From the NCBI GenBank assembly GCA_041748215.1, contig JBGTDR010000151.1, positions 8,620 through 72,619 on the forward strand: DNA of 64,000 nt. The letters are read 5' to 3'. Below the pieces are notes generated by a model, which was not told the DNA's origin, made no database searches, and saw nothing but the letters and a program-made list of their open reading frames with translations. Source of the DNA: Chthoniobacterales bacterium. Lineage in GTDB: Bacteria > Verrucomicrobiota > Verrucomicrobiia > Chthoniobacterales > JAATET01. Of the stretch, positions 7,555-52,011 are shown in pieces (positions within the stretch are counted from its first letter, which is position 1; each line of letters begins with the position of its first letter). A program made the position numbers and the translations under genes.

Positions 7555-9530
<1,976 letters not shown>

Positions 9531-9618
9531 AGTTGGTGTTTCGTTTTGGTTTTTTGGGTTTTTAACATTGCCGCGAACGCAAAATGCGGGCGGGCGTGTT
9601 GCTAAAGTGTTGAGTGGA

Positions 9619-11559
<1,941 letters not shown>

Positions 11560-15186: not shown

Positions 15187-15201
15187 GTTTCTGGATCGAT
15201 T

Positions 15202-15681: not shown

Positions 15682-15693
15682 GGGACTGCCTGG

Positions 15694-37327: not shown

Positions 37328-39562
37328 TCACGCGAGTGCGGTGTAACTCAGGCAAGCGACCTCCTCGAGCGTCGTCTGGCCGTCGAGAATCTGGATCAGA
37401 CCTTCCTGGTAAAGCGTGAGCACACCTTCGCGGACGGCGACCTCGCGCATCCGACTCTGCGGAGCATTTTGCGCGATGAGGTCGGCCAGCTCGGACGAGA
37501 TCGGGCACATTTCCATCAGCGCAATGCGACCGGCGTATCCGGTGTCGTGGCAATCGGGGCAGCCGGATTTGGCGAAAATCATGGTCTGATCCGGCGGGAT
37601 TGGGACAAGGTTACGCGTGAAGATGTTGCGTTCATCTTCGGTGATGGCGGTCGGGCGTTTGCAATAGTTGCACAGCCGCCGCACGAGGCGCTGGGCCTGG
37701 GAGAGCGCGAGGGAATCAGCCAGCAAATACGGTGGCACGCCCATCGAGATGAGCCGGGAAATGGCGCGCAGTGAATCGTTGGCGTGCAGGGTGGTGAGCA
37801 CGAGGTGACCGGTGAGGGCTGAATTCACCGCGGCGGAAGCCGTTTCGGCGTCGCGCGATTCGCCGATCAGAATCACGTCCGGATCAGCGCGCAGGATGCG
37901 GCGCAGACCCTCGGCGAAATTGATACCGTTGATCGGATCGGTCTGCGTCTGGTTGATGCCCTCGATCTCGTACTCGATCGGATCTTCCACGGTGTGGATG
38001 TTGATCGAATCGCGATTGATGCTGTTGATGAACGCGTAAAGCGACGTCGTTTTGCCGCTGCCGGTGGGTCCGGTGACCAGAATCAGCCCCTGATCACGCC
38101 CGAGAGCATTGGCGACGATTCCCGATTGGCGGGGAGTCAGGTTCAGCTCGCTGAGCTGGCGCACACCGTCCTTTTTATCGAGGAAACGAATGGTGATCTT
38201 TTGGAGATCCTTGCGGCACGGGATGGCGGAAACGCGGCAATCGACGCGGCGTTTGCCGATGCTCATGCTGAAACGCCCGTCCTCGGCGGCCTGCCGCCGC
38301 TGCCCCATGTTCGAATAATTTTTGATGAGGCTGATGTAGCGCGGGAGGGATTCCTCGGAGCAGGAATGGATCACGCGAAGTTCGCCATCGACGCGCACGC
38401 GGAACCGCGCCGTGTTGTAAAATTTTTCGACGTGAAGGTCGCTGGCGCGGAGCGAGACGGCGCGGTAGAGCACCCAATGCACGATTTGCTCAGGTGTGGT
38501 GTTGATGCCCGAGGGATTGACGCGGCTCATCTCGGCAGCGTCGATTTCGACGAGCGCGCCGGTGTCGGAATAGGTGAGGTCGCCGGACTCGACGATGGTG
38601 GAGGCCGTCGCCGCGTTGCCGCGATTGCGGTTGATGGTCTCGGTGATGCGCTCGGGATCCGCGAGGACCATCGTAAACTTCACGTCGTCCTGCCCGGTCG
38701 AAGCCCACTCGTCTTCGAACGCGTAGCTGGAGCGGTCCGGCGAAAGCAGGAAGACGTGCTGCCGCCCGCAATAGAGCGGATAGACGTTGTGTTTCTCGAG
38801 GATCGCGTCGGGGAAATACGACTGCGCCGGAGCAAACTCCGGGTTAAAACACGGCTGGCCGGTGGCGGAGTGGAAAAAGGCTACGCCGTAATCACGTGGC
38901 AGAATCTTGAACGTGGCGGGATCGTAGCCATCGTTCTCTCCCAAAACAGCTTCCGCTGCACGCAGGAGTCCCGCCTCCTCTTCGGTGAAGGGATAATGCT
39001 CGAGCATCCAGCGAGCCATCGCGAGCGGACCGGCTCCGCGCGGCGGCTCCGGGCTGTATTCCACGGGATTTGACATCGGCAGTGCGCCAAACGAAAGCCG
39101 CGCCAGAATGTCGGCGCGCAGGACCTCGTATTGGTCCCGTTTGACGAGCACGGGCATAAAAAGCCAGCGCGGGATGCCCCACGCCTCCCGGGCCGACGGA
39201 TCGAAATGGGCGCAAATCAGGATCGGGCCAATCGTGCCGAGCGGAAGCCACGGATTGGATTCGTCGGTCGCCCGCGCGAGTCGGCGGAAAATCGTTTCCG
39301 CCCGTGTCGGGCACGACGCGCGCGGGCAGTCGAGCGGCACAAGATCGCTTTGTTCCGCCAGCCATTCGAGTGACGCCTCGATCGGCACGTCATTCGTCTG
39401 GGCCACGAGCTCGTCGACATTCTCCCAATCGGTCAACGGCTGGAGCGGCACACGCAGATTGCGGCTCCGGAGCCACTCCGCCAGCCCATCGGGATGCCAG
39501 CCGCCTTCGCTCTGGACATCGGAGGATGCCACGGCGGGTCCGGGGGCAGCATGGCCAATCAC
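37328..39562 (-). CDS. GspE/PilB-family type IV filament assembly ATPase with extended (~370 aa) N-terminal region
   Basis: ASDLHVE, Walker A GPTGSGKTT, Walker B ADPDVILIGESRD, His box GHLVLTTLHAN and a tetracysteine CNYC...CPDC. The start is placed at GTG 39562, 3 nt after the upstream pilin stop. Confidence 0.85.
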   Translation of the reverse strand: MIGHAAPGPAVASSDVQSEGGWHPDGLAEWLRSRNLRVPLQPLTDWENVDELVAQTNDVPIEASLEWLAEQSDLVPLDCPRASCPTRAETIFRRLARATDESNPWLPLGTIGPILICAHFDPSAREAWGIPRWLFMPVLVKRDQYEVLRADILARLSFGALPMSNPVEYSPEPPRGAGPLAMARWMLEHYPFTEEEAGLLRAAEAVLGENDGYDPATFKILPRDYGVAFFHSATGQPCFNPEFAPAQSYFPDAILEKHNVYPLYCGRQHVFLLSPDRSSYAFEDEWASTGQDDVKFTMVLADPERITETINRNRGNAATASTIVESGDLTYSDTGALVEIDAAEMSRVNPSGINTTPEQIVHWVLYRAVSLRASDLHVEKFYNTARFRVRVDGELRVIHSCSEESLPRYISLIKNYSNMGQRRQAAEDGRFSMSIGKRRVDCRVSAIPCRKDLQKITIRFLDKKDGVRQLSELNLTPRQSGIVANALGRDQGLILVTGPTGSGKTTSLYAFINSINRDSINIHTVEDPIEYEIEGINQTQTDPINGINFAEGLRRILRADPDVILIGESRDAETASAAVNSALTGHLVLTTLHANDSLRAISRLISMGVPPYLLADSLALSQAQRLVRRLCNYCKRPTAITEDERNIFTRNLVPIPPDQTMIFAKSGCPDCHDTGYAGRIALMEMCPISSELADLIAQNAPQSRMREVAVREGVLTLYQEGLIQILDGQTTLEEVACLSYTALA

Positions 39563-39564
39563 GG

Positions 39565-39978
39565 TCAGTTTTCGATCACGAGCCCGGCACCACTCGTGCC
39601 GGGCGGGGTAAGGGTGAAAAAATCGCCCGACCACGTCATGCGGAATGTGTCGGTCGCACTCGATGTGGTCGTGGAAAATTCCGCCGGCACGTACGGCGAG
39701 CCCGGGATGCTTTCGTCCCGGGTCGTAAGCAGCGCGAGGACTTCCAGTTCGTCGGCCGCACCGGACGCCGCCGCAACGGGAATCTTTTCTGCCGATTGGT
39801 TGTAAGAAGCCACCCCGCGATTGAGCAGCGCCATGGCGTCGGATGTCAAGACACGCCGCGAATGGTCGATCACTCCGCCAAACCGCGGCACCGCAATCGC
39901 AATGAGAAATCCGAGGATCGCCATTGTCACCACCAGCTCAACCAGTGACATCCCGCGGCGATGGAAAAACGGATTCAT
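39565..39978 (-). CDS. Prepilin-type N-terminal cleavage/methylation domain protein (pseudopilin D)
   Basis: MNPFFHRRG|MSLVELVVTMAILGFLIAIAVP gives a class III signal with Gly-1 and Glu+5. Confidence 0.7.
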   Translation of the reverse strand: MNPFFHRRGMSLVELVVTMAILGFLIAIAVPRFGGVIDHSRRVLTSDAMALLNRGVASYNQSAEKIPVAAASGAADELEVLALLTTRDESIPGSPYVPAEFSTTTSSATDTFRMTWSGDFFTLTPPGTSGAGLVIEN

Positions 39979-39988
39979 ATCGGGTAAC

Positions 39989-40408
39989 TCAATAATCGAT
40001 CGCGCCAGCCGGCCCGGCGAGACCGACTTTCGTCAGCGGTGGGCTCATCGCAGTGGGCAGGCTGAGGGAATATCCCGAGGGCAGGTAATCGGAAAACGAA
40101 TCCGGGGCGAAGGCGAGGTAAGCGGCGAGTTTGTCGTAGCGTGCCTCGTCGTTAGCTGCTCCAGCCCATTGGGTTCCCGCGGCAGACCCGTAAGCCTGAA
40201 CAAACGAAGCCATCGCGAGGTTGATGGCCTCCGCCCGGGCGATGGCGAGGTTTTCCTCACTGTCCTGCTTCACGCGAACAATGTTCGGGATCGCCAGAAA
40301 AACGATCACGCCGATCAACGCCACCGCGGCGAGAACCTCGACCAGAGAAAACGCACGGCCACGGAACGTTGAACACTGGATGTTGGAAGTTGAACGTTGG
40401 GAGTTCAC
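39989..40408 (-). CDS. Prepilin-type N-terminal domain protein (pseudopilin C)
   Basis: ...FRGRA|FSLVEVLAAVALIGVIVFLAIPN. GTG 40408 overlaps the upstream stop (GTGA), and GTG 40444 is the alternative start. Confidence 0.65.
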   Translation of the reverse strand: MNSQRSTSNIQCSTFRGRAFSLVEVLAAVALIGVIVFLAIPNIVRVKQDSEENLAIARAEAINLAMASFVQAYGSAAGTQWAGAANDEARYDKLAAYLAFAPDSFSDYLPSGYSLSLPTAMSPPLTKVGLAGPAGAIDY

Positions 40409-40409
40409 T
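40368..40409. repeat. Degenerate heptamer array (GTTGRRN x6) inside the leader-coding 5' end of pseudopilin C
   Basis: gttgaac actggat gttggaa gttgaac gttggga gttcact. It shares gttggaagttga and gttgaacgttggg with the array at 62888-62946. Confidence 0.7.
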
Positions 40410-40902
40410 GGAGTTCGACCTTGGGATAGGTGTTGGTACCCCACGCTGAGAAGGTCACGTATTCGCCGTTTTTCGCCATGGCTTCGCTGCGGACCTGATT
40501 GGCGTTGGTCGTGTTGCCCACGAAATGCTGATACGTCGCCTCGTCAAGATAAGGACTCACCAACGCCAGCTTGGCCGCACCGGTCGCCGCGGCTGCGTAA
40601 GCCCCGCGAGTGCCCGCCACACTGCCCTGCCCGGACATCTGTTTTGACGCCCAATTGTTGAGCGCCTCCTGGAGCACGGCCTGCTGCTGACGCGCCAGCA
40701 CCGCTCGCGCGTCCTGCGCCGCATTCGTAAACGACGCAATCACCATCGAAACCATAATCCCAATGATCGAGATCGTGATGAGCAACTCGATGAGCGAAAA
40801 TGCGGCGCGGGCGGGATGAGAGCGCGTGCCTTCGGCTCGCGGGATGGAACGAACCGGGACGGGACGTCCCAGCTCCCTTGGGTTCAGTTGGCGTGGCTTC
40901 AT
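40405..40902 (-). CDS. Prepilin-type N-terminal domain protein (pseudopilin B, 34-aa leader)
   Basis: MKPRQLNPRELGRPVPVRSIPRAEGTRSHPARAA|FSLIELLITISIIGIMV. Confidence 0.7.
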   Translation of the reverse strand: MKPRQLNPRELGRPVPVRSIPRAEGTRSHPARAAFSLIELLITISIIGIMVSMVIASFTNAAQDARAVLARQQQAVLQEALNNWASKQMSGQGSVAGTRGAYAAAATGAAKLALVSPYLDEATYQHFVGNTTNANQVRSEAMAKNGEYVTFSAWGTNTYPKVELQ

Positions 40903-40919
40903 CGCGATTCCTTCGGGTC

Positions 40920-40954
40920 AAAAAACAAGCTCCGGCGTCCCCGCCGGAGCTTGT
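40920..40954 (-). terminator. Rho-independent terminator directly after the putative major pilin gene
   Basis: 13-bp perfect stem acaagctccggcg / cgccggagcttgt (40925-40954) with loop tccc. On the minus strand it is followed by a U-run (A-run 40920-40924 on plus). Confidence 0.7.
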
Positions 40955-40980
40955 ATGCGCTGCAACAGAGAGTGTGAGGA

Positions 40981-41400
40981 CTATGGGGTTGGAGAGGGCG
41001 CTGCACCTGCAGGATTGTAGATCAATTCGGACCCAGCGATGGACATGTATCCTTTGGCCGCAGCGAGATCAGCTGTTGCCATGTTCGGCACATGGAATTT
41101 TGCCGCTCCTACTTCAGCGGCATTCGCACCTGTAACAACTGCAACAGCATCGTCGACCGTTGTTGCACCAGAGTGGCCCGCTGCGCGAGCGGCAGAGTAA
41201 ACTGAAACAATGTTCTGCGCATTGCGCTGATTCTTCGCATCCCCAGCACCCTCCGTCAGGTTGGCGATATTCGGGATCGCGATGGCGGCAATGATGCCGA
41301 TGACGGCGATTACCACGAGAAGCTCGATCAGACTGAACGCCTTGCGACAGGCGGCACGGAGGCTTTGGAAGGTGTTTTCGGACTGGCTGATATTCTTCAT
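40981..41400 (-). CDS. Putative major pilin/pseudopilin A
   Basis: ATG at 41400: MKNISQSENTFQSLRAACRKA|FSLIELLVVIAVIGIIAAIAIPN. The mature part is small (~118 aa). The gene has its own 152-nt upstream spacer and a strong terminator behind it. The 197-aa track ORF is over-extended. Confidence 0.75.
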   Translation of the reverse strand: MKNISQSENTFQSLRAACRKAFSLIELLVVIAVIGIIAAIAIPNIANLTEGAGDAKNQRNAQNIVSVYSAARAAGHSGATTVDDAVAVVTGANAAEVGAAKFHVPNMATADLAAAKGYMSIAGSELIYNPAGAAPSPTP

Positions 41401-41552: not shown

Positions 41553-42860
41553 TCAGGCGGCTGGAAGCCGCCACTCCTTAAAACCATACGGCGAGGGCAC
41601 CGGAGCAGGCATCACCTGGGCACTGCCGGGTTTTTTCTTTTGGGGAAGGACAACTTTGCTGAGGTTGAAGATCGGTCCGTAGATGGCGTAAACGAGGAAT
41701 CCAACAAAAACGCCCATCGTGACGATGGTGATGGGTTCGAGGATTTTGTCGATCTGGCTGGCGATGTTGTCGAGTTCCTCCTCGTAATCGGTGGCGAGTT
41801 CGTCGAGCGCCTCGGTGGCACTACCGGATTCGGCGGCATTTTGCATGAGAGCGGCGATGATGCGGCCGTCGGGGCCAAGGCGGTGGGACTCGAGCATGAA
41901 TGCCTCGGGCAGGCTGAGGCCGTCGCTGATGTGGCCGCCAAGTTTTTCGAAAAAGATGCGGAAGTCGATGTGGGTGGCGGCGGATGAGGTGATTTCAAGC
42001 GCCGTGCTGATGCGGACGTTGGCCTGGAGCAGCATGGCGAGCGTGCGAAAACTGACGGTGGCGGCGGATTTCAAGACGATGGGCCCGACCGTGGGCAGCC
42101 GGGAAATGAGACGCTGAACCTCGGGCACGCGGTAAATTTTCGACCAGCGTTTGAAGAGAAAATAGAGGCCAACGAACGGCAGGATCGCGAGGTAGGGCTG
42201 ATTGATGAGAACGTTTGAAAGCGTCATCATGGCCACCGTGGCGAGGGGGAGGTCAGCCTTGAAGCTGACGTAGAGTTTCGAGATGGCGGGAACGAGCGTG
42301 AAGCTCATGGCCACAATCACGCCAACCGCTAGGACAAGCACGATCGCGGGATAGATCAGGCCGGTCTTGAGTTTTTTGAGGATGCGGAGCGTCTTGCGCT
42401 GGGTATTGGCAATCTGCAGGCAGACCGCCGGGAGTTGGCCGGACTCTTCGCCGGCGCGCAGCAGCGCAATCACGTCGTCGGGAAAGAGCGCCGGAAACTT
42501 TGCGAAAGCATCACTGAGTTTTTCGCCGGCGGAGAGCTCGTTGATCATCTCGGCGATGGCACCGCGATAGACTGGGGATTTCACCCGGCCGGTCTGGAGC
42601 TCCAGACTCTTGATGGCGGATATATTGCGGTCCAGGCAGCGGCCAAATCCTGAAAAAAACGCGACGCGGTCGTCCATCGACGGCTGTTTCCACGTCCGGC
42701 GGTAAACGAATTCGTCGGCACCCGTGATCGAGTGGATTTTCGCGACTTCGGTGGGCGCCTTGCCGCAGGCGAGCAGGGCGAGTTCGTCGCTGGCTGTATC
42801 GATCAGGACGTCGACGGACCGGCCGGATTCGGTGTCAGTGAGCGTGACTTTTTTGAGCAT
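41553..42860 (-). CDS. GspF/PilC-family type IV filament platform protein
   Basis: 435 aa with two T2SSF-like halves, each with TM segments (LKTGLIYPAIVLVLAVGVIV..., KILEPITIVTMGVFVGFLVYAIYGPIF). Confidence 0.85.
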   Translation of the reverse strand: MLKKVTLTDTESGRSVDVLIDTASDELALLACGKAPTEVAKIHSITGADEFVYRRTWKQPSMDDRVAFFSGFGRCLDRNISAIKSLELQTGRVKSPVYRGAIAEMINELSAGEKLSDAFAKFPALFPDDVIALLRAGEESGQLPAVCLQIANTQRKTLRILKKLKTGLIYPAIVLVLAVGVIVAMSFTLVPAISKLYVSFKADLPLATVAMMTLSNVLINQPYLAILPFVGLYFLFKRWSKIYRVPEVQRLISRLPTVGPIVLKSAATVSFRTLAMLLQANVRISTALEITSSAATHIDFRIFFEKLGGHISDGLSLPEAFMLESHRLGPDGRIIAALMQNAAESGSATEALDELATDYEEELDNIASQIDKILEPITIVTMGVFVGFLVYAIYGPIFNLSKVVLPQKKKPGSAQVMPAPVPSPYGFKEWRLPAA

Positions 42861-42869
42861 GAATCAGAC

Positions 42870-43325
42870 TTACCGAATGGACGCGCGAACGGCGGTGATG
42901 ACGCTCGTGCGCAGGGCGCTGGGGTCGCCGCCGGACCACGTTTCGGGCGTAACCGTCACCGGTAAGGCTTCGAAGTTGGATTTGAAAGTGATGGTGCAGC
43001 GGATTTGTTCGATACTGCCGATGCCAACGACGGAATTTGTCGAGCGGGGTAACGTGAGCGAAATCTGAGCGGGATCGCGGGGCAGCACGGTGGTGATGTC
43101 GATGGGATCAAGGCCGAGTTGAAAAAGCCGGGCCGCTTGTTCCTGAAGATTCAGCATGCGGCTGATCACCGTATTGGCTTCGGCCTGGGTCGTGATCGTG
43201 AGGGCCATTGACGCGGTCGCGGCGACACCAATCATGAGGATGGCCGCGGCAACGAGGACTTCGATGAGCGAATAACCACGGGCGGCAAACGGCGGAGTTT
43301 CGAATTTCAGCGGACGGGGAATCAT
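42870..43325 (-). CDS. Prepilin-type N-terminal domain protein (minor pilin, 151 aa)
   Basis: MIPRPLKFETPPFAARG|YSLIEVLVAAAILMIGV. Its ATG overlaps the upstream stop (ATGA at 43322-43325). Confidence 0.65.
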   Translation of the reverse strand: MIPRPLKFETPPFAARGYSLIEVLVAAAILMIGVAATASMALTITTQAEANTVISRMLNLQEQAARLFQLGLDPIDITTVLPRDPAQISLTLPRSTNSVVGIGSIEQIRCTITFKSNFEALPVTVTPETWSGGDPSALRTSVITAVRASIR

Positions 43326-44656
43326 TGGTTGTAACTTTCGACCCAGGTGTCCCGGGCGGTGAGGCGGTCGAGCAGGCGCGGATCGAGTTCGGGCGTTATT
43401 GTGAGTGAGCCGGTCGTCACGCTGAGAGCGGAATTCGTCTGGATGCCGCCCGTGAGCACGAGGCTGCCCGCCGGAGTCCAGACAGTGGGAACATTTTCCA
43501 ACGTGACGAGCAGCCGCCAGCCTCCACTGCCGGGGTTTGGGAAATCACACGTCACGTCGGCCGGGGTGGATTTTTTAATGGCGAGAACGGCGCGCCGGGC
43601 GTTCCGGTGATTGAACGTGATATTCATGAGGGCATCCTGAACGACGACGATGCTCACGGCTCCAAGGTTTCCCGCTGCGGCGTAATCGTCGTCGGAGATC
43701 TGGCCATTGATGACGATACGATCCGACGTGCCGGTGATGACCACTCCGGGAAAAGCCGGGTCGCCGATCTCGATGGTGATGAGGCCCGCGCCGTCATCGG
43801 TCACGCCCGGGACGCTGGCCCCGGGGATCGGCCGCGCTCCGTAGGTGGTTGCGGCAACGGCAAGGGAGTTGAGGCCCGAGGAATTGGCGACGACGTCGAG
43901 TGCGCCATTGAAAGCCGGAACCCCGCCGACGTCTCCGGACGTGAGTGGCGGAAACGCAAAATTGCTACCGGGTTGGTTCTGCCCGGAACCATTCGGAAGG
44001 GTGAGCAGGCCGAGGCTGGGCGGAACGGGCGGCACCGTGAATGACGCGGTTTGAAGGGAATAGGTGCCGCCCGCCCACACCAAAGACCGGCCCGCGGCAT
44101 ATGTCGTGCCGGAAACGCTCATCGCCACCGGAGGAAGCGCCGCAATAAAAACATCGCCGCCGAGCAGCGGCGAGCGGCTGCGGGCAAAATACCGGCGAAT
44201 CTGCTGTCGCGTCACATCGCTGCCCTCGCGTGAAGTGATGGTCGCCGTCAGACTGACTGCGTAACCATCCCCATTTCCGGGATTAAAAAAATTGTAGCCC
44301 GCAAATTTCGATGTCGTTGTCAGTGGGGTGAACGCGGTGGCGGCGATGTCGACTGATCCCCAATCCACGCCACCGGAATCCGTCACCGTCGCGGTCACGG
44401 CCGCCGCACCGGTTTTTGTGAGCACCTGCGCGAGCAGATATTCCTGCGCCAGCGCATGACCATTGTTGAACGCGATGCGCCGCTTCACGCCGGCAGAAAA
44501 TTGGTCGACATACCCAGTTTGTGCCGACATCACCGCGAGCCAGCCTGCGGTGAGCGCCGCGCCCGCGATCATGATCACGAGCACGAAGGCAAGGGCCGCA
44601 CCGGAACAATGTGCCGGTCGAGAGCCGCAGATTCGTGATCGACCCGGCAGTTTCAT
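43322..44656 (-). CDS. PilX/GspK-like large minor-pilin-type protein (hydrophobic N-terminus without Glu+5)
   Basis: ATG at 44656 (MKLPGRSRICGSRPAHCSGAALAFVLVIMIAGAALTAGW) with an ATGA overlap with the upstream gene. The function is assigned from position and N-terminal topology only. Confidence 0.45.
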   Translation of the reverse strand: MKLPGRSRICGSRPAHCSGAALAFVLVIMIAGAALTAGWLAVMSAQTGYVDQFSAGVKRRIAFNNGHALAQEYLLAQVLTKTGAAAVTATVTDSGGVDWGSVDIAATAFTPLTTTSKFAGYNFFNPGNGDGYAVSLTATITSREGSDVTRQQIRRYFARSRSPLLGGDVFIAALPPVAMSVSGTTYAAGRSLVWAGGTYSLQTASFTVPPVPPSLGLLTLPNGSGQNQPGSNFAFPPLTSGDVGGVPAFNGALDVVANSSGLNSLAVAATTYGARPIPGASVPGVTDDGAGLITIEIGDPAFPGVVITGTSDRIVINGQISDDDYAAAGNLGAVSIVVVQDALMNITFNHRNARRAVLAIKKSTPADVTCDFPNPGSGGWRLLVTLENVPTVWTPAGSLVLTGGIQTNSALSVTTGSLTITPELDPRLLDRLTARDTWVESYNQ

Positions 44657-45606
44657 AAGGCCGGAAACATGGGGACGACAAAAAAGAACGACGTGCGACC
44701 ACCCATTGCCGGATAAGATGCCTTCGGATCGGTGGCGGCGTAGGTTGTGGCGGCGGGCACGGCCTCGAGCCGGGGCACGGCAGGATCTGGCCACCAGACA
44801 AAATAAAACGGGCGTCCACGCGCGATTTTGAGCCGGTCGATGGCGTCACCTTCGACGAAATTTTTTCGCGCCGCCCGCTCGAATGCGACAACCAGCGGAT
44901 TGAATGCCACCGTTGCGCCGTCCACGGCTGGATAAAAGATATCGTAATAATCCGTGAGCACGCCGGCCTCGTGGCGTGTGACCGCGGCGTAGGTCCCGTC
45001 CGAACCAATCGGCACGAGGTCGATGTCGTAGATGACGCGCACCGACAGCTCAACGACGGACGCTGAGGGTTGAAGCAAAAAAATCGAGGCATTGGTGGCG
45101 GCCGACGCGCCTCGATAGGCATCGTATTCGCCGGCGTCGGGCAATAATTGGCGGAAAGCCTCGGGAGAACCGACCGTGCGCCCGTCGAAGTTCGCGGGCA
45201 CTGCAATCGTAGTTGGACGGGAGGGATTCCGCCCATCCCTTCCGAGGCAAAAGACAGCGCTCGCCCGCGCAACGTCATCCCAAAATTTATCCCGCAACAA
45301 GTCGGCATCGGCCCGGCGGCCGTAGTTTGGGGCGGAATAGACGTCCAGATTTGTCTGGCTGAGTCCGTAGAGATTTTCCAGCACTGTAGCCCCGACGGGC
45401 AGCGAGGAATACGAAGCCGTGGGTCGGGCGGCAGCGGTGATATTCTGGTAAATCATTACGGCCGTCGTGATGACGGCGGCGGCGATGGCGGCGGCGATGA
45501 CGATTTCAACCAGGCTGAACGCCGCGTCCGCTCCAGCCGATCGATGCCGGGCACCGGGACGGAGTTCAGAGATCCGCCGGGGCTTCGGTGGGCGGAACGG
45601 GTGCAT
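44653..45606 (-). CDS. Prepilin-type N-terminal domain protein (minor pilin, ~318 aa)
   Basis: ATG at 45606: MHPFRPPKPRRISELRPGARHRSAGADAA|FSLVEIVIAAAIAAAVITTAV. Confidence 0.55.
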   Translation of the reverse strand: MHPFRPPKPRRISELRPGARHRSAGADAAFSLVEIVIAAAIAAAVITTAVMIYQNITAAARPTASYSSLPVGATVLENLYGLSQTNLDVYSAPNYGRRADADLLRDKFWDDVARASAVFCLGRDGRNPSRPTTIAVPANFDGRTVGSPEAFRQLLPDAGEYDAYRGASAATNASIFLLQPSASVVELSVRVIYDIDLVPIGSDGTYAAVTRHEAGVLTDYYDIFYPAVDGATVAFNPLVVAFERAARKNFVEGDAIDRLKIARGRPFYFVWWPDPAVPRLEAVPAATTYAATDPKASYPAMGGRTSFFFVVPMFPAL

Positions 45607-46129
45607 CGGTGGTGACACTGGGTTGAGGAACCGGCGGATTGACCGAACGTCCGCCAAGCGCGCGGCTCACTCCCGGCTGAAGATTCACTGGAATAAATAG
45701 CCGGCGGGGTTCAGCAGCGGGATCAGCCTCGATCCAGACGATTTCGATCGCGGATTCGTAGATGGCTTCGACTTTGAGCCGCTCGGTTTGACCGGCGATC
45801 ACCGGCGGCAGAATTTTTCCGGCCTCGAGAATGAGATCATCGAGCAGGATTTTGCGACCTTCGGATCCGCGCGTGCGGCCGACCACCCGGAGCTGCATCA
45901 GCACGTTGCGGATGCGATTTTCCTCTGTTTCGGCCTCCTGTTCGTCCTGCACGATTTCGGGTTTCTGCTCGCGTTTCGCGAAAGGATTGCGCTCCTCGGG
46001 GCGGATGGGAACGGGTTGTTTGTCGCCGGGCAGCAATCCGACCGAGCGCTGGGCGTGGGCGGCCGCTGCCGCACCGAACACCGCCATGCCAAGCAGGATG
46101 AGCAACCGGGTGGAGCGAAACGTGGTCAT
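45566..46129 (-). CDS. Secreted protein, PilP-like by position
   Basis: ATG at 46129 and signal peptide MTTFRSTRLLILLGMAVFGAAAAAHAQ. An acidic linker is followed by a small beta-rich domain. The assignment is positional. Confidence 0.4.
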   Translation of the reverse strand: MTTFRSTRLLILLGMAVFGAAAAAHAQRSVGLLPGDKQPVPIRPEERNPFAKREQKPEIVQDEQEAETEENRIRNVLMQLRVVGRTRGSEGRKILLDDLILEAGKILPPVIAGQTERLKVEAIYESAIEIVWIEADPAAEPRRLFIPVNLQPGVSRALGGRSVNPPVPQPSVTTDAPVPPTEAPADL

Positions 46130-46671
46130 GGCGTTTCCGCGCTGAGAAGCGGGAGGTCGATGGTGACGTCGAGGCGAATGTCGTTGCCGCTCTGGCCGCG
46201 GGCGATCTTGAGATTCGACACGCGGGAGGCGGGCAGGGACGCCTCGATGTTGCCAAGCCACGCGAGAGTTTTGGCATAGTCATCCTCGAACGTGAGATTG
46301 GCACGGACGATCCGCGGGATGTGTGGGGAGACGGTGGAATTCACGACCTCGAACCGCTGGGCCAGACTGACCAGGCCGGATTCCTTGATGCGGGCGGCAA
46401 TGTTGAGCTCGCCGGCCTCGGCGGTGTGAATCTGGTTGAGCGGCTCGCGCCACGCTTCGAGGTAGGCAATGAGCTGATTTGAATCGTCACGCAGTCCGCC
46501 GAGCATCGTGTTTTCCGTCGCGAGCACGCTCTCGATCGAGGTGGCGTTCAGTTGTGCGGCGGCGGCAGCGGCGGTCATTTTGTTGAGGCGATTGCGCACC
46601 GAAAGTGCGCCTTGGAAAACGAGCACCGCGAAAAGTGCGAGCATGACGCAGGCGAGGTGTTTGCTGTTCAT
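46126..46671 (-). CDS. Bitopic membrane protein, PilO/GspM-like by topology
   Basis: One N-terminal TM segment (HLACVMLALFAVLVFQGAL), a coiled-coil-like stretch and an alpha/beta C-terminus. ATGA overlaps occur at both ends. Confidence 0.45.
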   Translation of the reverse strand: MNSKHLACVMLALFAVLVFQGALSVRNRLNKMTAAAAAAQLNATSIESVLATENTMLGGLRDDSNQLIAYLEAWREPLNQIHTAEAGELNIAARIKESGLVSLAQRFEVVNSTVSPHIPRIVRANLTFEDDYAKTLAWLGNIEASLPASRVSNLKIARGQSGNDIRLDVTIDLPLLSAETP

Positions 46672-47291
46672 GGCGCGGTTTCCGTTGGTGGTGCGACGGC
46701 GGGCGGCGTTTCCGCGGGAGGTGTGGAACTGCCACCAGCCCCCTGCCAGATCAGGGTGGCTTCGTAGTCGATCTGGTCCCGACTCTGACGTTGCTGCGCG
46801 GAATACGGGCGAAAATTCATGCGGGTGATCTCTTCAAGCGTCGCGTCGAGCTGGCGCGTCTCGTCAGTCTGGAGGGCAACGCTCACCTTGATTTGAAACG
46901 GGGCTTTGTCTTCGCGGGCGAGGGCCAATTCCGTGATCGCGGCCCGGCTGCCAATGCTCCGGCAAATGGTGGCCACGAGCGGCTGAAGATTGCGCGATCC
47001 CTCGACCCAATTGACAAAATCCGAGGCGCGCTTGGCGCGTGACTCGAGTGAAGCGCGCTCGCCTTTTGTGCGATTGAGTTCGGTCTGGGTGGCGGCCGAC
47101 TGGGCATTCCAACGGTCGAGTTCGGCGGACGCCTGGCGAATCTGAAACATCGAATATCCCGCGATGCCGATGCTGGCTGCGACAGCGAGATAAAACCCGA
47201 GCGGCACAATGCGCAGAGTCACCGGCAGTGGCGGTGCGATCTCCGGTCGCTCGGTCTTGAGGTCGTGGACCTGTCGGGGTTCGATGTACAT
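46668..47291 (-). CDS. Bitopic membrane protein, PilN/GspL(C)-like by topology
   Basis: A short cytoplasmic N-terminus, one TM segment (LRIVPLGFYLAVAASIGIAGYSMF), a coiled-coil-like segment and a Pro/Thr-rich tail. Confidence 0.45.
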   Translation of the reverse strand: MYIEPRQVHDLKTERPEIAPPLPVTLRIVPLGFYLAVAASIGIAGYSMFQIRQASAELDRWNAQSAATQTELNRTKGERASLESRAKRASDFVNWVEGSRNLQPLVATICRSIGSRAAITELALAREDKAPFQIKVSVALQTDETRQLDATLEEITRMNFRPYSAQQRQSRDQIDYEATLIWQGAGGSSTPPAETPPAVAPPTETAP

Positions 47292-47298
47292 GGACGGC

Positions 47299-48204
47299 TC
47301 AGAGATCGGCGAGGACCCGCCAGAGCTGATGGTTGCGGGAATGATCGGTCACGGCCGCGGAAGGCAGGCGATCGCGAAGTTTTTCGACCAACGGAGATTC
47401 GTCGGTCTCGGCGACAAAGTGGACTTCCGCGTCCTTGTCGAGCCGGCTGCAAAGTGGCTGGAGGATGTCGAGCACGGGTGCCGGATCGCCGTGGTAAAGG
47501 TCGCTGCGCGAACGCAGCTCGGTCCACAGGTCGCCCGACTGCAACATCGCGCACACCGAACCTTCGCAGCAGACCACGTAAAGTCGCTCGACCTTTTTCC
47601 CACCGGGCTGATTGAGCCCGGATCGCGACCCGTCGCCGGACGGGCGTTCGGCGTTGGTTTCCTCGAGCACTCGGCAAAGCAGCGCATACGTGCCACAGGC
47701 GATGCGACCCGCTTGAAGCCCGTGTTCCTTGAGCGTCGTTTCGGTGCGACGAATCTGCTCCTCATCGCACGCGAGCAGGATCGACGCGATGCTCTCCGGA
47801 TTGTGCGTGAGCGCGTAACGTTTGCCGCGCTCGTAACGCGAGCCGAGCGCGCTCCGGGGATTCGTCCGGATCACCTCCTCGACGCCCGGCTTGCGGGACA
47901 GATTCGTTTCGAGGCTGATCACGTAGCGGGTATTGATCGAGACGGCGCACCAGCCATCGTCCGAGAGACTTTTCCACTCGTCGTTGCACTGCGTTGCGAC
48001 GTCCTTGAATTCCCCTTCCTGCGAGCCGCCCTCGAGGAATCGACCGCCCTTGCCGAGGCAGCGCCACGTCGTGGCCGCACGGCTGATGTTCAGCAAAAGT
48101 GTCCGTTTGTGCGGGAAGCGCGGCCGCCACGGAGCGGAGCTGTCGTCGGGTTCGGGCCGAAATGCCGCGAACGTCAGCACGTCCTTGATGTCCTTCAGAT
48201 TCAC
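47299..48204 (-). CDS. Cytoplasmic protein, PilM/GspL(N)-like by position
   Basis: 301 aa with no TM segment. The GTG start overlaps the PilT stop (GTGA at 48201-48204). I could read no diagnostic motif, so the assignment is positional. Confidence 0.35.
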   Translation of the reverse strand: MNLKDIKDVLTFAAFRPEPDDSSAPWRPRFPHKRTLLLNISRAATTWRCLGKGGRFLEGGSQEGEFKDVATQCNDEWKSLSDDGWCAVSINTRYVISLETNLSRKPGVEEVIRTNPRSALGSRYERGKRYALTHNPESIASILLACDEEQIRRTETTLKEHGLQAGRIACGTYALLCRVLEETNAERPSGDGSRSGLNQPGGKKVERLYVVCCEGSVCAMLQSGDLWTELRSRSDLYHGDPAPVLDILQPLCSRLDKDAEVHFVAETDESPLVEKLRDRLPSAAVTDHSRNHQLWRVLADL

Positions 48205-49253
48205 GCCGGGATCTTCACCTGTTTCGCGAGGTAATCCTCGACTTCGCCGGCGCTGAACCCGGTCGGTTCGGGTGAGACGCTCTGAAATCCTTCCTCAGCG
48301 CGCTGTGCGATGCTCCGGGTGAAATCGTTCATGCCACGCTTCCAACCGGTCTCGAGTTCCTGATCGAGCTTTTTGAACTCCCCGCGGCGGATGAGATTCA
48401 CCACGGCATCGTACTGGAGGAGGACCTCGTGAATCGGAAACCGTTTGCCGCGGGTGCCATCGAGCAACAGGCGCTGGCAAAGCACAAGGCGCAGCGTATC
48501 GGCGAGCGTCGCCTGTGCCGCTTCGACCCGCTCACTCGGGATCAGCTTCAGAAATCGCTGCACCGTCTGTGACGCCGACGACGTGTGCAGCGTGGCCACC
48601 ACCGCATGGCCGGTCTCGGACGCCTGCAGCGCGATCTCGGCCGTCTCGCCGTCGCGAATCTCGCCAACCACAATGACGTCCGGTGCCTGGCGCAACGCCG
48701 ACCGAAGCGCGTAGCCGAAATTGGTTTCGTCGCTGCCCATTTCGCGCTGCGAAACGAGTGACGGCAACGCCTCTGGATAAACGAATTCGATGGGATCTTC
48801 GAACGTGATGACGTGTTCGCGGCGGCGTTCCGCGCGGTGTTTCACCATCGACGCAATCGTCGTGGATTTGCCGCTGCCGGTTGCTCCGCAGATGAGAAAC
48901 AGCCCATTTTTGGACTCGAGAAACGTCTTCACCGCGGGCAGTGGGACTTTGATCTGGCTGGGCTCCGGGATGTCGCGCGGCAGCAGGCGCAGCACCCAGC
49001 GAAAACGGCCCTGGGTGACCATGCGGCTCACGCGAAACCGGTAGTCGCCAATCATCTGAGCGTAATCCAGGCAGCCCGGGACCAGCTCCGGAAGAGACGA
49101 CGGCTCGTAAATGTGGGCGTCGTAATGAAGCTGGCCGTTGTGTTTGTAGCAGAGCGGTTGCCCCGGGGTGACGTAAAAATCGCTCACCCCGTCGCCGGCG
49201 GCGAGTTCGACGATACGGGCTTCGAGGGCGGGCGAGGCGAGGGATTCGCTCAT
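48201..49253 (-). CDS. pilT: PilT-family (retraction-type) hexameric ATPase
   Basis: 350 aa with Walker A GATGSGKST, Asp box ITFEDPIEFVY, Walker B PDVIVVGEIRD and His box GHAVVATLHTSSA. It lacks the N-terminal GspE-type domains. Confidence 0.85.
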   Translation of the reverse strand: MSESLASPALEARIVELAAGDGVSDFYVTPGQPLCYKHNGQLHYDAHIYEPSSLPELVPGCLDYAQMIGDYRFRVSRMVTQGRFRWVLRLLPRDIPEPSQIKVPLPAVKTFLESKNGLFLICGATGSGKSTTIASMVKHRAERRREHVITFEDPIEFVYPEALPSLVSQREMGSDETNFGYALRSALRQAPDVIVVGEIRDGETAEIALQASETGHAVVATLHTSSASQTVQRFLKLIPSERVEAAQATLADTLRLVLCQRLLLDGTRGKRFPIHEVLLQYDAVVNLIRRGEFKKLDQELETGWKRGMNDFTRSIAQRAEEGFQSVSPEPTGFSAGEVEDYLAKQVKIPA

Positions 49254-49274: not shown

Positions 49275-51791
49275 TCAGTTCTCAATGACGGGCGGCAGGT
49301 TGAAAACAACGCTGTTGCTGTTGATGGTCAGGAAATTGGCAGTAACGCTGCCGGTGAAAACGCTGTTGGCGTTGAAAGTGACACTGCCCGTCGGAATCAC
49401 GAGTTGACCGTACATCGTGCTACCGGAATTGGCAGTGAAATTGCCCGACGAGAATTGCATTTGCAGCCAGTCGGGATTGGCGGAATTGCCAAGGACCGAG
49501 CCGCTGTTGATCGTGATGCTGTTGCCGACGGTGATGACCACCTTGCCGACAATTTTGAGGTCACTGTTGCTGTTCAGCGTCAGGTTATTGAAGCTGTAGT
49601 ATTGCGGGACGTCCGGATTGTTCGGATCTCCAAGCACGAACGCGGTGCCATTGTTGGCGGTAAGGTTGTTAAAATTTCCCGGGTTGAGCCGCACGTCGCC
49701 GACGCCGCTGGAATTGATGGTGACGTTGGAGAACTGGGTGGCGCTGATCGGTCCGGGTGGAGGGGAATTCAGGCTGGTCGAGCCGCTACTCTGCGGAGGG
49801 GGCGGTGGTGCGACTTCCGGGAATGCCGGGGAATCATGCCGCCGGACAACCTTGCCCTCCAGAAGCGCGTTGTTGTTGAAGGTCACGGAATAGTTCGTCG
49901 GCTGGATGCTCCCATCCTCGTCGATCACGCGCGGCGTGGTTTGCACCGTCTTTTGTCCGGCCGCGTTGAACTCCCAACCCTGGATGACGGCTGCAAACTG
50001 GTCGTCGTTGGCCGGAGACCAGACCGTGCCACTGGTGCGGCGAACCGTCGGCGTGCCGGGTAGATACAGGTTGCCGTTGAGAATGCGCGCGTTGGAATTG
50101 AACGTGATGCTATTCATCGAACCCGAAGCTGGCGTCGCGTAAATGAGGGATCCGACAAACGTCCCGTTGAGCGTGGCGCTACCCACGAGTGCACCCTCGG
50201 GTGTGGTGATCGACGTGTAGGTCGCCGTTGCCGGACTACTCGGGGTGAACCATTGGCTCGCTCCCGGCGGCCCGTAAGTACGCGCGGTCACGACAAGAAC
50301 GCCAGCCGTTCCGGCACCGGGCAGGAATTCTCCGGCGTAAAGTGTCCCGCCCGCCGCACTCCCGTTGTTGTCGCCGGGATCAAGACCATCGAGCGTGTAA
50401 TAAATCTGCTCTCCAGTCGGCCCCCCGGCGGCCGCCTCGATGGTCACGGGCACGTCCGCGGACCGGATCCCGGTGCCCGGAACAATGGTGGGTGCTCCCA
50501 GCGCGGTGGGCGTGGCGGCAACCGATGCGTTGCCCTCACCGGCGAGAAACGTGATCGTCTCTGAGCTGGACCCCTCCGCGGATGCCCGGATCGTCAGGGC
50601 GCTGCTGGCTGCCCAGCGGCCAACGCTTACGTCGATGGACGCGGGGGACGGCGAGCTTTGCTCGACCGGAGTATCGCCAGCGAGCGGGTCTCCACCGTCA
50701 TAACGCCACCAGATTTTGGGATCGGGGCGATAACGTTCGTTGATCTGAGCAAGGTTGGTGATCGCCGCAAGGGCCGGGGCTGGAGCCAGCGGTGACACGC
50801 CGGGTATCGCACCGCCCGCCTGCTGATACGTGAGCGTGGGCGCGGCGGGTGATACCGAAACCTCGAGTTGGTAGGGTGTTGCGGCATAACTGGCTGCCCC
50901 GGCGCCACCGTCAATCCAGCGATCAGGATCGACCGTCACGGCGCGGGCGGTGAGCGTGGCCCCCGGATCAACCTCGATGGCATTTGTGTAAAGGTCTTCG
51001 GGAGCGCCGTTGAGCGAATAAAGCACCTTCGAACTGCCGCCCGGATTGGGATTATTGACGGAGACCATCATCGGGTAGGCGGTCAGCTCGTAACTGCCAT
51101 CTCCGGGAGAAAAAGTCGGGGCCGTCAGCGGGTCGGCGGTTGGAGTTGGTGGAGCCAGCGCCGCAGGAGCAGCGGCAGTGCCGGCAAGAGCAGGGCCGCC
51201 GGGGCGCGCCGCAGGCTCTCGATCTGTGTAATCCCAAACCCAGCCGTTGTCCGCGAGCTTTGTGGCTGGCGCGCGATCCTCCGTCCCGGGATCGACCGCG
51301 GCGAGCGCGTCATCGAGCACAAATTGCCGAACACCCGCGCCCCCCGACATCGCAATTTCGAAACGTTGATCCGCCTGGCTGAAGATTGCCCGTTCTTCGG
51401 TGCGCGCCGCTTCGGCAGACGTCTGCATCACCGCCCGCAAACGTTTATCGACCATTCCACCGGTCAGGCCGGCGATGGTCGTGGCCGTCGCCGACGTGGC
51501 GGACTTCTTCAACTGATCGACCGCCGTCTGGGGATTCGTGGTCGCGAGCGAATTCCCACCACTGACCCGGTAAGTCTGGATCGCGGAATTAATGACGGCA
51601 ACATCGCTGCGGAGTTTTTCCACCCGGGTGGATTCGCCCAGCGAAACGATGCTCACGTAGCCAATACTCGCAAGAATGCCGATCACCGCAGCCACCACCA
51701 GACCCTCGAGCAAAGTGAAAGCGCTCCGCTCACCGGCGGAGGCCAGCCGCCTCCGGTGTGTCGAACGATGGACTAAATGCTTCGGCTTCAA
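49275..51791 (-). CDS. Giant prepilin-like protein (~839 aa) with two chitobiase/hexosaminidase-C-like segments and an Asn-rich beta-helix-like C-terminus
   Basis: ...AGERSA|FTLLEGLVVAAVIGILASIGYV class III signal. Also PTFSPGDGSY...KVLYSLNG and GEQIYYTLDGLDP segments, and C-terminal repeats of the type TFNSNA/TINSSG/TLNSNS/TINSGS/TFNANS/TINSNS. The start is uncertain. TTG 51791 was chosen because the 961-aa track ORF would run into the divergent secretin gene. Confidence 0.6.
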   Translation of the reverse strand: MKPKHLVHRSTHRRRLASAGERSAFTLLEGLVVAAVIGILASIGYVSIVSLGESTRVEKLRSDVAVINSAIQTYRVSGGNSLATTNPQTAVDQLKKSATSATATTIAGLTGGMVDKRLRAVMQTSAEAARTEERAIFSQADQRFEIAMSGGAGVRQFVLDDALAAVDPGTEDRAPATKLADNGWVWDYTDREPAARPGGPALAGTAAAPAALAPPTPTADPLTAPTFSPGDGSYELTAYPMMVSVNNPNPGGSSKVLYSLNGAPEDLYTNAIEVDPGATLTARAVTVDPDRWIDGGAGAASYAATPYQLEVSVSPAAPTLTYQQAGGAIPGVSPLAPAPALAAITNLAQINERYRPDPKIWWRYDGGDPLAGDTPVEQSSPSPASIDVSVGRWAASSALTIRASAEGSSSETITFLAGEGNASVAATPTALGAPTIVPGTGIRSADVPVTIEAAAGGPTGEQIYYTLDGLDPGDNNGSAAGGTLYAGEFLPGAGTAGVLVVTARTYGPPGASQWFTPSSPATATYTSITTPEGALVGSATLNGTFVGSLIYATPASGSMNSITFNSNARILNGNLYLPGTPTVRRTSGTVWSPANDDQFAAVIQGWEFNAAGQKTVQTTPRVIDEDGSIQPTNYSVTFNNNALLEGKVVRRHDSPAFPEVAPPPPPQSSGSTSLNSPPPGPISATQFSNVTINSSGVGDVRLNPGNFNNLTANNGTAFVLGDPNNPDVPQYYSFNNLTLNSNSDLKIVGKVVITVGNSITINSGSVLGNSANPDWLQMQFSSGNFTANSGSTMYGQLVIPTGSVTFNANSVFTGSVTANFLTINSNSVVFNLPPVIEN

Positions 51792-52011
51792 TTGGTGAAT
51801 CGGGATCGACCAGGATCGAAAGAGCCGTTGCAGCGCGATTTCACTAGACCAACAGACCTTGCCGCGGACAAGAAAAGACTTTGATTGCAAAGACCTGCAC
51901 GGTAGTGAGTCCGTCAAGCATCGCAGGCGGAGCGAAGCCCCAACTTTCCCATTTCGCGACTTGAGCCTCGAACCAGCCGGCAGCCCCATCCTTCCTTCCG
52001 GCAGTCCCCAC

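Follow-up and report, generated by a model that had tools for sequence, protein, structure and literature searches.

Does the preponderance of Ala over Gly immediately before the predicted cleavage site of the prepilin-like proteins encoded at this locus point to an unusual mode of prepilin processing? In the window (the whole 64,000-nucleotide stretch of DNA analyzed here), the −1 residue is Ala in six of the eight proteins with a class III signal and Gly in the other two. The initial annotation, which read these N-termini exactly as they emerge from our six-frame motif scan, considered the pattern anomalous on the premise that Gly at −1 is nearly invariant. We find that Ala at −1 is an already recognized variant of the cleavage site, common and interchangeable with Gly in this lineage; the observation is real but ordinary. 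In the reading that we favor, with a probability of about 0.85, all eight are ordinary precursors of type IV pilins or pseudopilins. A PilD-type peptidase whose gene is unlinked would cleave them after either residue, and the variation between Ala and Gly at −1 would be a near-neutral polymorphism enriched in this clade.

The strict motif used in the scan, x-[FMYLIVW][STAN]xx[ED] and then a run of 10 or more uncharged residues, identified eight real class-III-signal ORFs, along with two chance matches outside the pilins, at 9421 and 26096. All eight proteins contain Phe, Met or Tyr at +1 and Glu at +5, with at least 14 uncharged residues thereafter, and all display the basic hydrophilic leader and the stretch of about 20 hydrophobic residues broken by Glu5 by which SPIII are defined in a recent review, with Gly or Ala as the last leader residue (PMC10191384). 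The leaders are indeed 9-34 aa long and basic, as originally described, with net charges of +2 to +6. Seven of the eight proteins score above the TIGR02532 cut-off (16.3), at 17.7-31.9 bits (18.3 for pilin 3), and five score above the Pfam PF07963 N_methyl cut-off (21.2), with pilins 3, 6 and 7 below it; the N_methyl match of pilin 6 is weak (13.9 bits, E = 0.043), and the same motif is present in its 34 orthologs.

Seven of the pilins are encoded in one conserved type IV filament operon, and the remaining one is a pseudopilin of the DUF1559 type that stands alone (Table 1).

Table 1. Genes of the pilus operon and the orphan pseudopilin in the window. A slash marks the predicted cleavage site; leader lengths are given for the start codons used in the initial annotation.
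Feature	Length (aa)	Coordinates	Strand	Motif	N-terminus	Leader (aa)	Residue −1	Cys	Remarks
Extension ATPase, GspE/PilB type	up to 768	37328..39634	−						Pfam T2SSE, E = 1.6e-99, residues 383-759
Pilin 4	137	39565..39978	−	HRRG/MSLVE	MNPFFHRRG/MSLVELVVTMAILG	9	Gly	none	Met at +1
Pilin 3	139	39989..40408	−	FRGRA/FSLVE	...STFRGRA/FSLVEVLAAVALIG	19	Ala	none in mature part	
Pilin 2	165	40405..40902	−	PARAA/FSLIE	...HPARAA/FSLIELLITISIIG	34	Ala	none	
Pilin 1	139	40981..41400	−	ACRKA/FSLIE	MKNISQSENTFQSLRAACRKA/FSLIELLVVIAVIGIIAAIAIPN	21	Ala	none in mature part	
Platform protein, GspF/PilC type	435	41553..42860	−						Pfam T2SSF, E = 1e-39
Pilin 5, PilV/GspI-like minor pilin	151	42870..43325	−	AARG/YSLIE	...PPFAARG/YSLIEVLVAAAILM	17	Gly		
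444-aa protein	444	43322..44656	−		…CSGAALAFVLVIMIAGAALTAG				N-terminal hydrophobic segment, no Glu at +5
Pilin 6	317	44653..45606	−	GADAA/FSLVE	...RSAGADAA/FSLVEIVIAAAIAAAV	29	Ala		
Four genes	about 187, 181, 207, 301	45566..48204	−						Gene calls
PilT/PilU-like ATPase	350	48201..49253	−						Pfam T2SSE, E = 1e-43
Pilin 7, giant modular pilin	838 from TTG at 51791	49275..51791	−	GERSA/FTLLE	...LASAGERSA/FTLLEGLVVAAVIG	24	Ala	none	
Outer-membrane secretin	740	51859..54081	+						Pfam Secretin, E = 1e-32; divergent from pilin operon
Orphan pseudopilin	177	59601..60134	+	SQRA/FTLIE	MPARFSPSQRA/FTLIELLVVIAIIAVLMGLLFPAVG	11	Ala	none	

The combination of a T2SSE extension ATPase, a T2SSF platform protein and seven pilins, four small and three larger, places the operon in the T4F superfamily. 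The extension ATPase, which has a long N-terminal extension, matches the GspE (388 bits) and PilB (377 bits) models, both below their cut-offs. The best NCBIfam match of the PilT/PilU-like ATPase, a putative retraction motor, is pilT_fam (274 bits, E = 1.5e-81; cut-off 319 bits), and the secretin matches the PilQ and GspD models of NCBIfam below their cut-offs. Pfam and NCBIfam gave no match for the 444-aa protein or for the four genes between pilin 6 and the PilT/PilU-like ATPase. Judging by position, the former might be a minor pilin, given that it occupies the usual place of the PilX/GspK-like proteins, and the latter, located where a PilP/O/N/M-like alignment subcomplex would be encoded, may provide such a subcomplex. 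Matches to the GspG, GspH and GspI models of T2SS pseudopilins were confined to the N-terminal helix, with scores far short of the cut-offs (GspG on the window pilins, 25-41 bits against 88.85), and among the cluster genes scanned against Pfam and NCBIfam, there was no GspC/L/M-type match. The classical hallmark of T4aP, a leader shorter than 10 aa combined with a D-region disulfide in the major pilin, is also absent.

The source of the DNA is a verrucomicrobium in or near Chthoniobacterales/Terrimicrobiaceae. The platform protein has 816 homologs, of which the named ones belong to Chthoniobacterales, Terrimicrobiaceae or Verrucomicrobiales. The orphan scores 36 bits with N_methyl and has a DUF1559-type start (SBP_bac_10/DUF1559, 23.2 bits, just under the 23.3-bit cut-off); its best 120 homologs carry prepilin-type or type II secretion system annotations, and the three named ones come from Chthoniobacterales or Terrimicrobiaceae MAGs.

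Pilin 1, the product of the first gene after the platform gene, is likely the major pilin. It scores 30 bits with Pfam N_methyl and 31.9 bits with TIGR02532; when type IV pilins of known structure (8qqj PilA5, 1oqw PAK pilin) are aligned with it, their mature chains begin at F22, and Gly-1 of the geopilin precursor is aligned with Ala21. The AlphaFold2 model (pLDDT 90.5) predicts a lollipop in which a helix spanning residues 8-73 is followed by an alpha/beta head with four short strands. Foldseek returned no PDB match for this model; we suspect that its prefilter was defeated by the elongated, helix-dominated shape. The predicted membership of pilin 1 in the pilin fold is based on its sequence and on the shape of the model.

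For the comparison with relatives, 80 related loci were anchored on the non-pilin GspF gene, and orthologs were assigned by BLAST of the mature domains; a relaxed motif (x-hydrophobic-xxx-[DE] plus 12 uncharged residues) was dropped after yielding 916 mostly spurious matches. Across these loci, the aligned −1 position in the seven operon pilin families is occupied by 122 Gly, 56 Ala and 2 Thr, and both Ala and Gly are found at the same aligned site in every one of the seven families, with +1 and +5 fixed. By family, the orthologs comprise 13 Ala and 10 Gly for pilin 2, 10 Ala and 15 Gly for pilin 3, 3 Ala and 19 Gly for pilin 4, 13 Ala and 29 Gly for pilin 5, 4 Ala and 30 Gly for pilin 6 (n = 34), and 7 Ala and 6 Gly, in addition to 2 non-N-terminal matches, for pilin 7, whose orthologs are about 800 aa long. 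A search without a word index detected 36 Ala and 109 Gly among 145 representatives of the pilin 1 family. In the orphan family, the best 120 homologs include 99 with Ala and 21 with Gly, a count that may lean slightly towards Ala through the word-index prefilter. Thus, the lineage-wide occurrence of Ala at −1, which the initial annotation had left to be established, is borne out, with Ala accounting for 25-83% of the −1 residues in the orthologous families.

The two residues also alternate at short evolutionary and genomic distances. Ala and Gly pilins are mixed in 20 of 39 operons, as they are in the window, and therefore one cell must process both. The neighbor-joining tree of the orphan family implies at least 11 independent changes between Ala and Gly, and some pairs of proteins that are 88% identical differ at −1. 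The ratio of Ala to Gly is 16:9 in the six closest related loci, compared with 40:113 in the rest, so the abundance of Ala is a clade trend rather than an oddity of one genome. Given the family-specific frequencies in the relatives, 3.2 Ala residues would be expected among the eight window proteins (Poisson-binomial P(≥6) = 0.03), that is, six is modestly above expectation.

These distributions could also reflect a specialized peptidase, either because the S1 pocket of the verrucomicrobial PilD accepts Ala at least as readily as Gly, or because the Ala/Gly choice tunes processing rates and pilin stoichiometry. The high frequency of Ala, set against the 'invariably Gly' of model organisms (PMC4471445), its enrichment at the clade level, and the differences between families, with pilins 4 and 6 mostly containing Gly and pilin 2 and the orphan mostly Ala, all fit such an enzyme. 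However, the switching is frequent and scattered, even among close relatives; the putative major pilin 1 contains Ala here but Gly in most of the relatives, a pattern that looks neutral rather than role-specific; and the streptococcal PilD, a canonical enzyme, already handles Ala (PMC3694846). Hence we consider a specialized peptidase quite unlikely. It is likewise rather unlikely that, in Verrucomicrobiota and above all in the Chthoniobacterales clade, the peptidase no longer prefers Gly to Ala at P1, or that the rate at which each pilin is processed is set by the choice between Ala and Gly; if true, this would provide a natural experiment on the S1 pocket of A24 enzymes, whose substrate recognition is still poorly understood.

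Under the favored reading, that of ordinary precursors cut after either residue, each precursor would be inserted in the inner membrane with the basic leader on the cytoplasmic side. An A24 aspartic peptidase of the PilD family, whose gene would lie elsewhere in the genome, would then separate the −1 Ala or Gly from the +1 Phe, Tyr or Met and would probably N-methylate the new N-terminus, after which Glu +5 and the hydrophobic helix would drive filament assembly. The −1 position in this lineage would take Gly or Ala interchangeably, and the excess of Ala in the window would represent clade-level drift, not a different processing chemistry. Our data show the motifs, their register, the operon context and the interchange of Gly and Ala across the lineage, whereas we infer that cleavage and methylation take place and which enzyme is responsible. 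Equal efficiency of cleavage after Ala and Gly is an assumption because PilD of P. aeruginosa, according to what Strom and Lory reportedly found in 1991, cleaves a Gly-1-to-Ala mutant less well than the wild type, with partial cleavage.

With regard to the enzyme itself, the initial annotation had noted the lack of an A24 peptidase gene in the window, and we found none either: a tblastn search with a P. aeruginosa PilD sequence produced nothing better than E = 7, and no GxGD[hydrophobic][K/R] signature was present in a coding frame of the window. Applied to the 80 relatives, the same approach (tblastn with this PilD sequence and GxGD scans) detected no A24 peptidase within 10 kb of GspF in any of them.

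The near-invariance of Gly at −1, the premise from which the anomaly was derived, is contradicted by the literature. The canonical motif is (A/G)X4(D/E), and PilFind accepts [GAS] at this position (Imam 2011, PMC3244431); furthermore, top-down mass spectrometry demonstrated that ComGC of S. pneumoniae is cut after Ala15 and N-methylated (Laurenceau 2013, PMC3694846). The 'invariably Gly' wording of an older review pertains to model organisms, and the same review notes many exceptions to Gly at −1 in archaea (Berry & Pelicic, PMC4471445).

Nor do the leader lengths constitute an anomaly. The described ranges are 6-26 aa overall, up to 18 aa for type IVa and 15-30 aa for type IVb, and the PilFind motif is usually located in the first 35 aa, so that the 9-34 aa observed here fall mostly within or near these limits. 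Only the 34-aa leader of pilin 2 extends beyond both 6-26 and 15-30 aa, still under the PilFind limit, and this length is firm because the gene has only one possible start codon (ATG); pilin 3 starts with GTG at 40408, with an alternative GTG at 40444. Leader-length criteria for subtypes are, moreover, no longer valid according to a review (PMC4471445). Verrucomicrobial pilin leaders were not the subject of any paper found in our literature search. As originally stated, Cys is missing from the mature parts of pilins 1-4, the four small ones, but Cys-free heads, together with median leaders of 11-13 aa, are features of the families as a whole, and the pilin 2 orthologs are Cys-free throughout. 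The absence of a disulfide is known in other pilins and pseudopilins as well. Taken together, the initial annotation is partly supported: its descriptive statements hold, whereas the premise that made them anomalous does not.

A further possibility is that the Ala-type proteins are not cut at the predicted bond but after an upstream Gly, that they are translated from other start codons, or that they persist as uncleaved membrane anchors. Some of the leaders do contain an upstream Gly (RSAGADAA, ASAGERSA, FRGRA), and the scores of pilins 3, 6 and 7 below the N_methyl cut-off could be taken in the same sense. Yet pilin 1, pilin 2 and the orphan contain no Gly in the ten residues preceding the site, and the leaders of pilin 1 and the orphan are entirely Gly-free. 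In the orthologs, Gly is located exactly where the window proteins have Ala, with F/Y at +1 and E at +5 fixed, and the register of Phe1 and Glu5 works only with a cut directly before Phe, from which the solved pilins align. In these ORFs, every possible start codon precedes the motif. We therefore regard cleavage at another bond, or none, as very unlikely. That the Ala codons arose from errors in sequencing or assembly, or belong to decaying pseudogenes, is almost certainly wrong and effectively refuted by independent assemblies, considering that a Logan assembly encodes an identical GspF protein and has identical starts for the covered cluster genes (products of 139, 165, 151, 317 and 444 aa, equal in length to those of the window), that the class-III-signal ORFs are intact and their GC3, at 0.66-0.76, is in line with that of coding genes here, and that the same Ala recurs in dozens of independent MAGs.

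Apart from its bearing on annotation practice, the finding has little import. Ala at −1 should be accepted both by motif-based pilin finders and by human readers, above all in Verrucomicrobiota, in which between a quarter and four-fifths of the family members contain it. The locus and its relatives offer a quantitative example of the evolutionary interchange of Gly and Ala at the prepilin cleavage site, often inside one operon, which supports the 'Gly or Ala' rule, and the verrucomicrobial prepilin peptidases appear to be convenient material for studying how A24 enzymes read P1. The conserved operon, with its four Cys-free small pilins, 838-aa modular pilin, PilT-like ATPase and secretin, may itself be worth study as a variant of a well-known machine.

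Among the known systems, the archaeal class III signals (FlaFind; substrates of PibD, FlaK and EppA) resemble those in the window in tolerating small non-Gly residues at −1, but the window proteins have a bacterial-type helix (Phe +1, Glu +5) and a diderm machine with a secretin, and lack any archaeal-type pilin or archaellin domain. ComGC of the S. pneumoniae Com pilus shares the class III signal, the Ala-ended leader and Glu at +5. Pneumococcal ComGC is also not known to contain a stabilizing disulfide. The Com pilus, however, serves DNA uptake in a monoderm and has neither a secretin nor PilT, and ComGC is unrelated to the window pilins beyond the N-terminal helix, the ComGC HMM scoring far below its cut-off. 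The orphan resembles the pseudopilins of the PVC superphylum (N_methyl plus DUF1559/SBP_bac_10) in that its N_methyl domain precedes a region matching the start of DUF1559; with 177 aa against 268 model positions, however, it matches only positions 2-43. This group also includes the 'Verru_Chthon cassette' proteins (TIGR02596/TIGR02599); the match of the orphan to cassette protein D is weak, under the family cut-offs. The remaining comparison is with the diderm type IVa pili (P. aeruginosa PilA/PilD, the Thermus thermophilus PilA5 narrow pilus and the Geobacter geopilin; PDB matches 9egp, 7tgg, 8qqj and 1oqw). Model pilins of this type have Gly at −1 and leaders of 6-7 aa, compared with Ala in six of eight proteins and leaders of 9-34 aa in the window, where, in addition, the small pilins lack the D-region disulfide, the genes in the PilMNOP position match no HMM, and all equivalog models score under their cut-offs. 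The window nevertheless shares with these pili a PilB/GspE-type ATPase, a PilC/GspF platform, a PilT-like ATPase and a secretin, and the N-terminal helices closely resemble each other, with FSLIELLVVIAVIGIIAAIAIP here and FTLIELLIVVAIIGILAAIAIP in geopilin.

Eight pilin-type ORFs, together with two non-pilin chance matches, were recovered when the whole window was scanned in six frames for any residue that precedes [FMYLIVW][STAN]xx[ED] and an uncharged run. All eight carry Glu at +5; seven clear the cut-off of TIGR02532 and five that of Pfam N_methyl, with pilin 6 matching the HMMs weakly. Where a separate Logan assembly from this organism covers the cluster, its gene calls have the same lengths. 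The N-termini transcribed in the initial annotation were exact for all eight proteins, and its descriptive details, namely six Ala versus two Gly at -1, long basic leaders, Cys-free mature parts of the four small pilins, and the absence of an A24 prepilin peptidase gene from the window, were each checked and borne out, so that the observation is confirmed throughout. Two tandem ExbD/TolR-like small proteins adjoining an ExbB-like gene (motif FQIAPM[IV]D[IV]) are false positives of a relaxed pilin motif; like these genes, GroEL and DnaK represent ordinary housekeeping context.

Features of the window, with leader lengths (from the start codons of the initial annotation) and residues at the aligned -1 position of each family in 80 related loci
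Feature	Coordinates	Strand	Residue at -1	From +1	Leader (aa)	Ala in family	Gly in family
Pilin 1	40981-41400	minus	Ala	Phe	21	6	13
Pilin 2	40405-40902	minus	Ala	Phe	34	13	10
Pilin 3	39989-40408	minus	Ala	Phe	19	10	15
Pilin 4	39565-39978	minus	Gly	MSLVE	9	3	19
Pilin 5	42870-43325	minus	Gly	YSLIE	17	13	29
Pilin 6	44653-45606	minus	Ala	Phe	29	4	30
Pilin 7 (giant)	49275-51791	minus	Ala	Phe	24	7	6
Orphan pseudopilin	59601-60134	plus	Ala	Phe	11		
Extension ATPase	37328-39634	minus					
Platform protein	41553-42860	minus					
444-aa protein	43322-44656	minus					
Four-gene block	45566-48204	minus					
Secretin	51859-54081	plus					
ExbD/TolR-like pair	14773-16620	minus					
GroEL and DnaK	7555-11556						

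The Gly found in orthologues sits exactly at the position of Ala in the window. In sequence alignments, the mature chains of solved pilins (Thermus thermophilus PilA5, 8qqj; Pseudomonas aeruginosa PAK pilin, 1oqw; Myxococcus xanthus PilA; Neisseria gonorrhoeae pilin) start at F22 of pilin 1, and Gly-1 of the geopilin precursors (9egp, 7tgg) aligns with its Ala21. The predicted scissile bond is thus positionally homologous. Cleavage at a Gly farther upstream was rejected: the Gly residues present there in some leaders show no conservation, and Gly is altogether absent from two Ala-type leaders. Modelled by AlphaFold2 with 60 relatives, pilin 1 is confidently predicted (pLDDT 90.5) to have a small alpha/beta head on a long helix at its N-terminus; a Foldseek search of the PDB with this model returned no neighbour.

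Like the four small pilins, T2SS GspG, geopilin, and the Com pilin of pneumococcus are not known to have a disulfide. The leaders bear net charges of +2 to +6, and the 34-aa leader of pilin 2 is firm, given a single possible start codon. A review that gives leader lengths of 6-26 aa in general, at most 18 aa for type IVa and 15-30 aa for type IVb states that leader-length criteria 'are not valid anymore' (PMC4471445), and PilFind looks for the motif in roughly the first 35 residues of a protein (PMC3244431).

To place these residues in their lineage, 80 related loci were collected using the non-pilin GspF-type platform gene as the anchor, with 10 kb flanks, on contigs from one genome per species; orthologues were assigned by BLAST of mature domains minus the first 25 residues, which keeps the shared helix from driving the match. 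Across the seven operon families, the -1 position is occupied by Gly in 122 cases, Ala in 56 and Thr in 2, with the +1 aromatic residue and +5 Glu constant throughout. Thus, Ala at -1 is lineage-wide, a point that the initial annotation had left to be checked: it occurs in all seven operon families and in the orphan family, where Ala was found in 99 and Gly in 21 of the 120 best homologues (43-100% identity). In the latter family, a Fitch count on a neighbour-joining tree gives at least 11 Gly/Ala changes, and there are pairs with 88% identity over the mature part but different -1 residues. Two or more pilins could be assigned in 39 loci, of which 20 mix Ala and Gly in one operon, 17 are Gly-only and 2 Ala-only. 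An index-free search with pilin 1, in which all 1.84 billion representatives were read with no word prefilter, produced 145 motif-bearing matches, 36 with Ala and 109 with Gly (median leader 13 aa; mature part Cys-free in 130). The six nearest loci (GspF identity 64-68%) contain 16 Ala and 9 Gly, versus 40 and 113 in the remaining loci, so the 5/7 Ala of the window operon follows a clade trend. The Ala surplus in the window is mild (6/8 observed versus 3.2 expected from family-specific frequencies, P = 0.03) and consistent with the Ala-rich closest loci.

Strom and Lory reportedly found in 1991 that Ala is the only substitution of Gly-1 still partly cleaved by P. aeruginosa PilD. The premise of the initial annotation that Gly is near-invariant at -1 matches one published statement, but does not stand against Imam et al. 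2011 (PMC3244431), who have PilD acting 'at a glycine or alanine', the canonical motif as (A/G)X4(D/E) and [GAS] coded into PilFind, nor against pneumococcal ComGC, found by top-down mass spectrometry to be cut after Ala15 and N-methylated (Laurenceau et al. 2013, PMC3694846). No paper describing the prevalence of Ala in Verrucomicrobiota was found in the literature searched, so the census numbers may be new; they extend the known Ala/Gly rule without breaking it.

Within the window, tblastn with a P. aeruginosa PilD query gave nothing better than E = 7, and no coding frame contains a GxGD-type signature. An A24 gene is likewise absent from the 10-kb flanks of the platform gene in all 80 related verrucomicrobial loci, so the peptidase appears consistently unlinked from the operon across the lineage. 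We consider these proteins ordinary type IV prepilins, most likely (probability about 0.85) subject to standard processing, in which an unlinked PilD-family peptidase would cut directly after Ala or Gly, the two residues forming a near-neutral polymorphism of unusually high frequency in Verrucomicrobiota, with further enrichment in this clade.

Judging from its predicted genes, the locus encodes a diderm-type machine for type IV filaments. Seven of the eight pilin-type genes share one minus-strand operon, which runs from the giant pilin (838 aa) through a PilT/PilU-like ATPase, four genes without an HMM match, a 317-aa pilin, a 444-aa protein with a hydrophobic N-terminus, a 151-aa pilin, the GspF/PilC platform protein and the four small pilins to a GspE/PilB ATPase of at most 768 aa; the secretin gene is divergent from it. 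Equivalog models for PilB, GspE, PilT, PilQ, GspD, GspG and others all matched below cut-off, so that they assign the machine to no curated subtype. With a threshold of E <= 1e-20, 816 homologues of the platform protein were retrieved; the named ones, 58-71% identical, come from MAGs of Chthoniobacterales, Terrimicrobiaceae or Verrucomicrobiales, and one match outside the named set reaches 88%. The window therefore belongs to a verrucomicrobium of this group.

In the extension ATPase, the T2SSE domain covers residues 383-759 only, with a faint MshEN-like match at residues 272-341, leaving an unexplained N-terminal extension of roughly 270-380 aa; if the longest start is used, the ORF shares 70 nt with the 3' end of pilin 4, and its real start may therefore be further downstream. 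The four consecutive genes between the PilT-like ATPase and pilin 6 (about 187, 181, 207 and 301 aa) have no match among Pfam and NCBIfam models, lie where PilM/N/O/P-type alignment proteins are expected, and stay together as a conserved block on a Logan contig (L001). The 444-aa protein has an N-terminal hydrophobic segment, CSGAALAFVLVIMIAGAALTAG, but lacks both Glu at +5 and any HMM match. BLAST finds its C-terminal part in related loci at about 30-45% identity, and the protein may be a minor pilin of the PilX/GspK kind without the canonical motif.

The giant pilin 7 has orthologues of about 800 aa in related operons (33-55% identity, nearly all Cys-free) and resembles the modular pilins exemplified by PilB of Streptococcus sanguinis. 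Over its last 70 residues, the secretin has a weak match to NF042912, the 'Amuc_1098 family type IV pilus outer membrane protein', which loosely links the operon to the pilus-like cluster Amuc_1098-1102 of Akkermansia.
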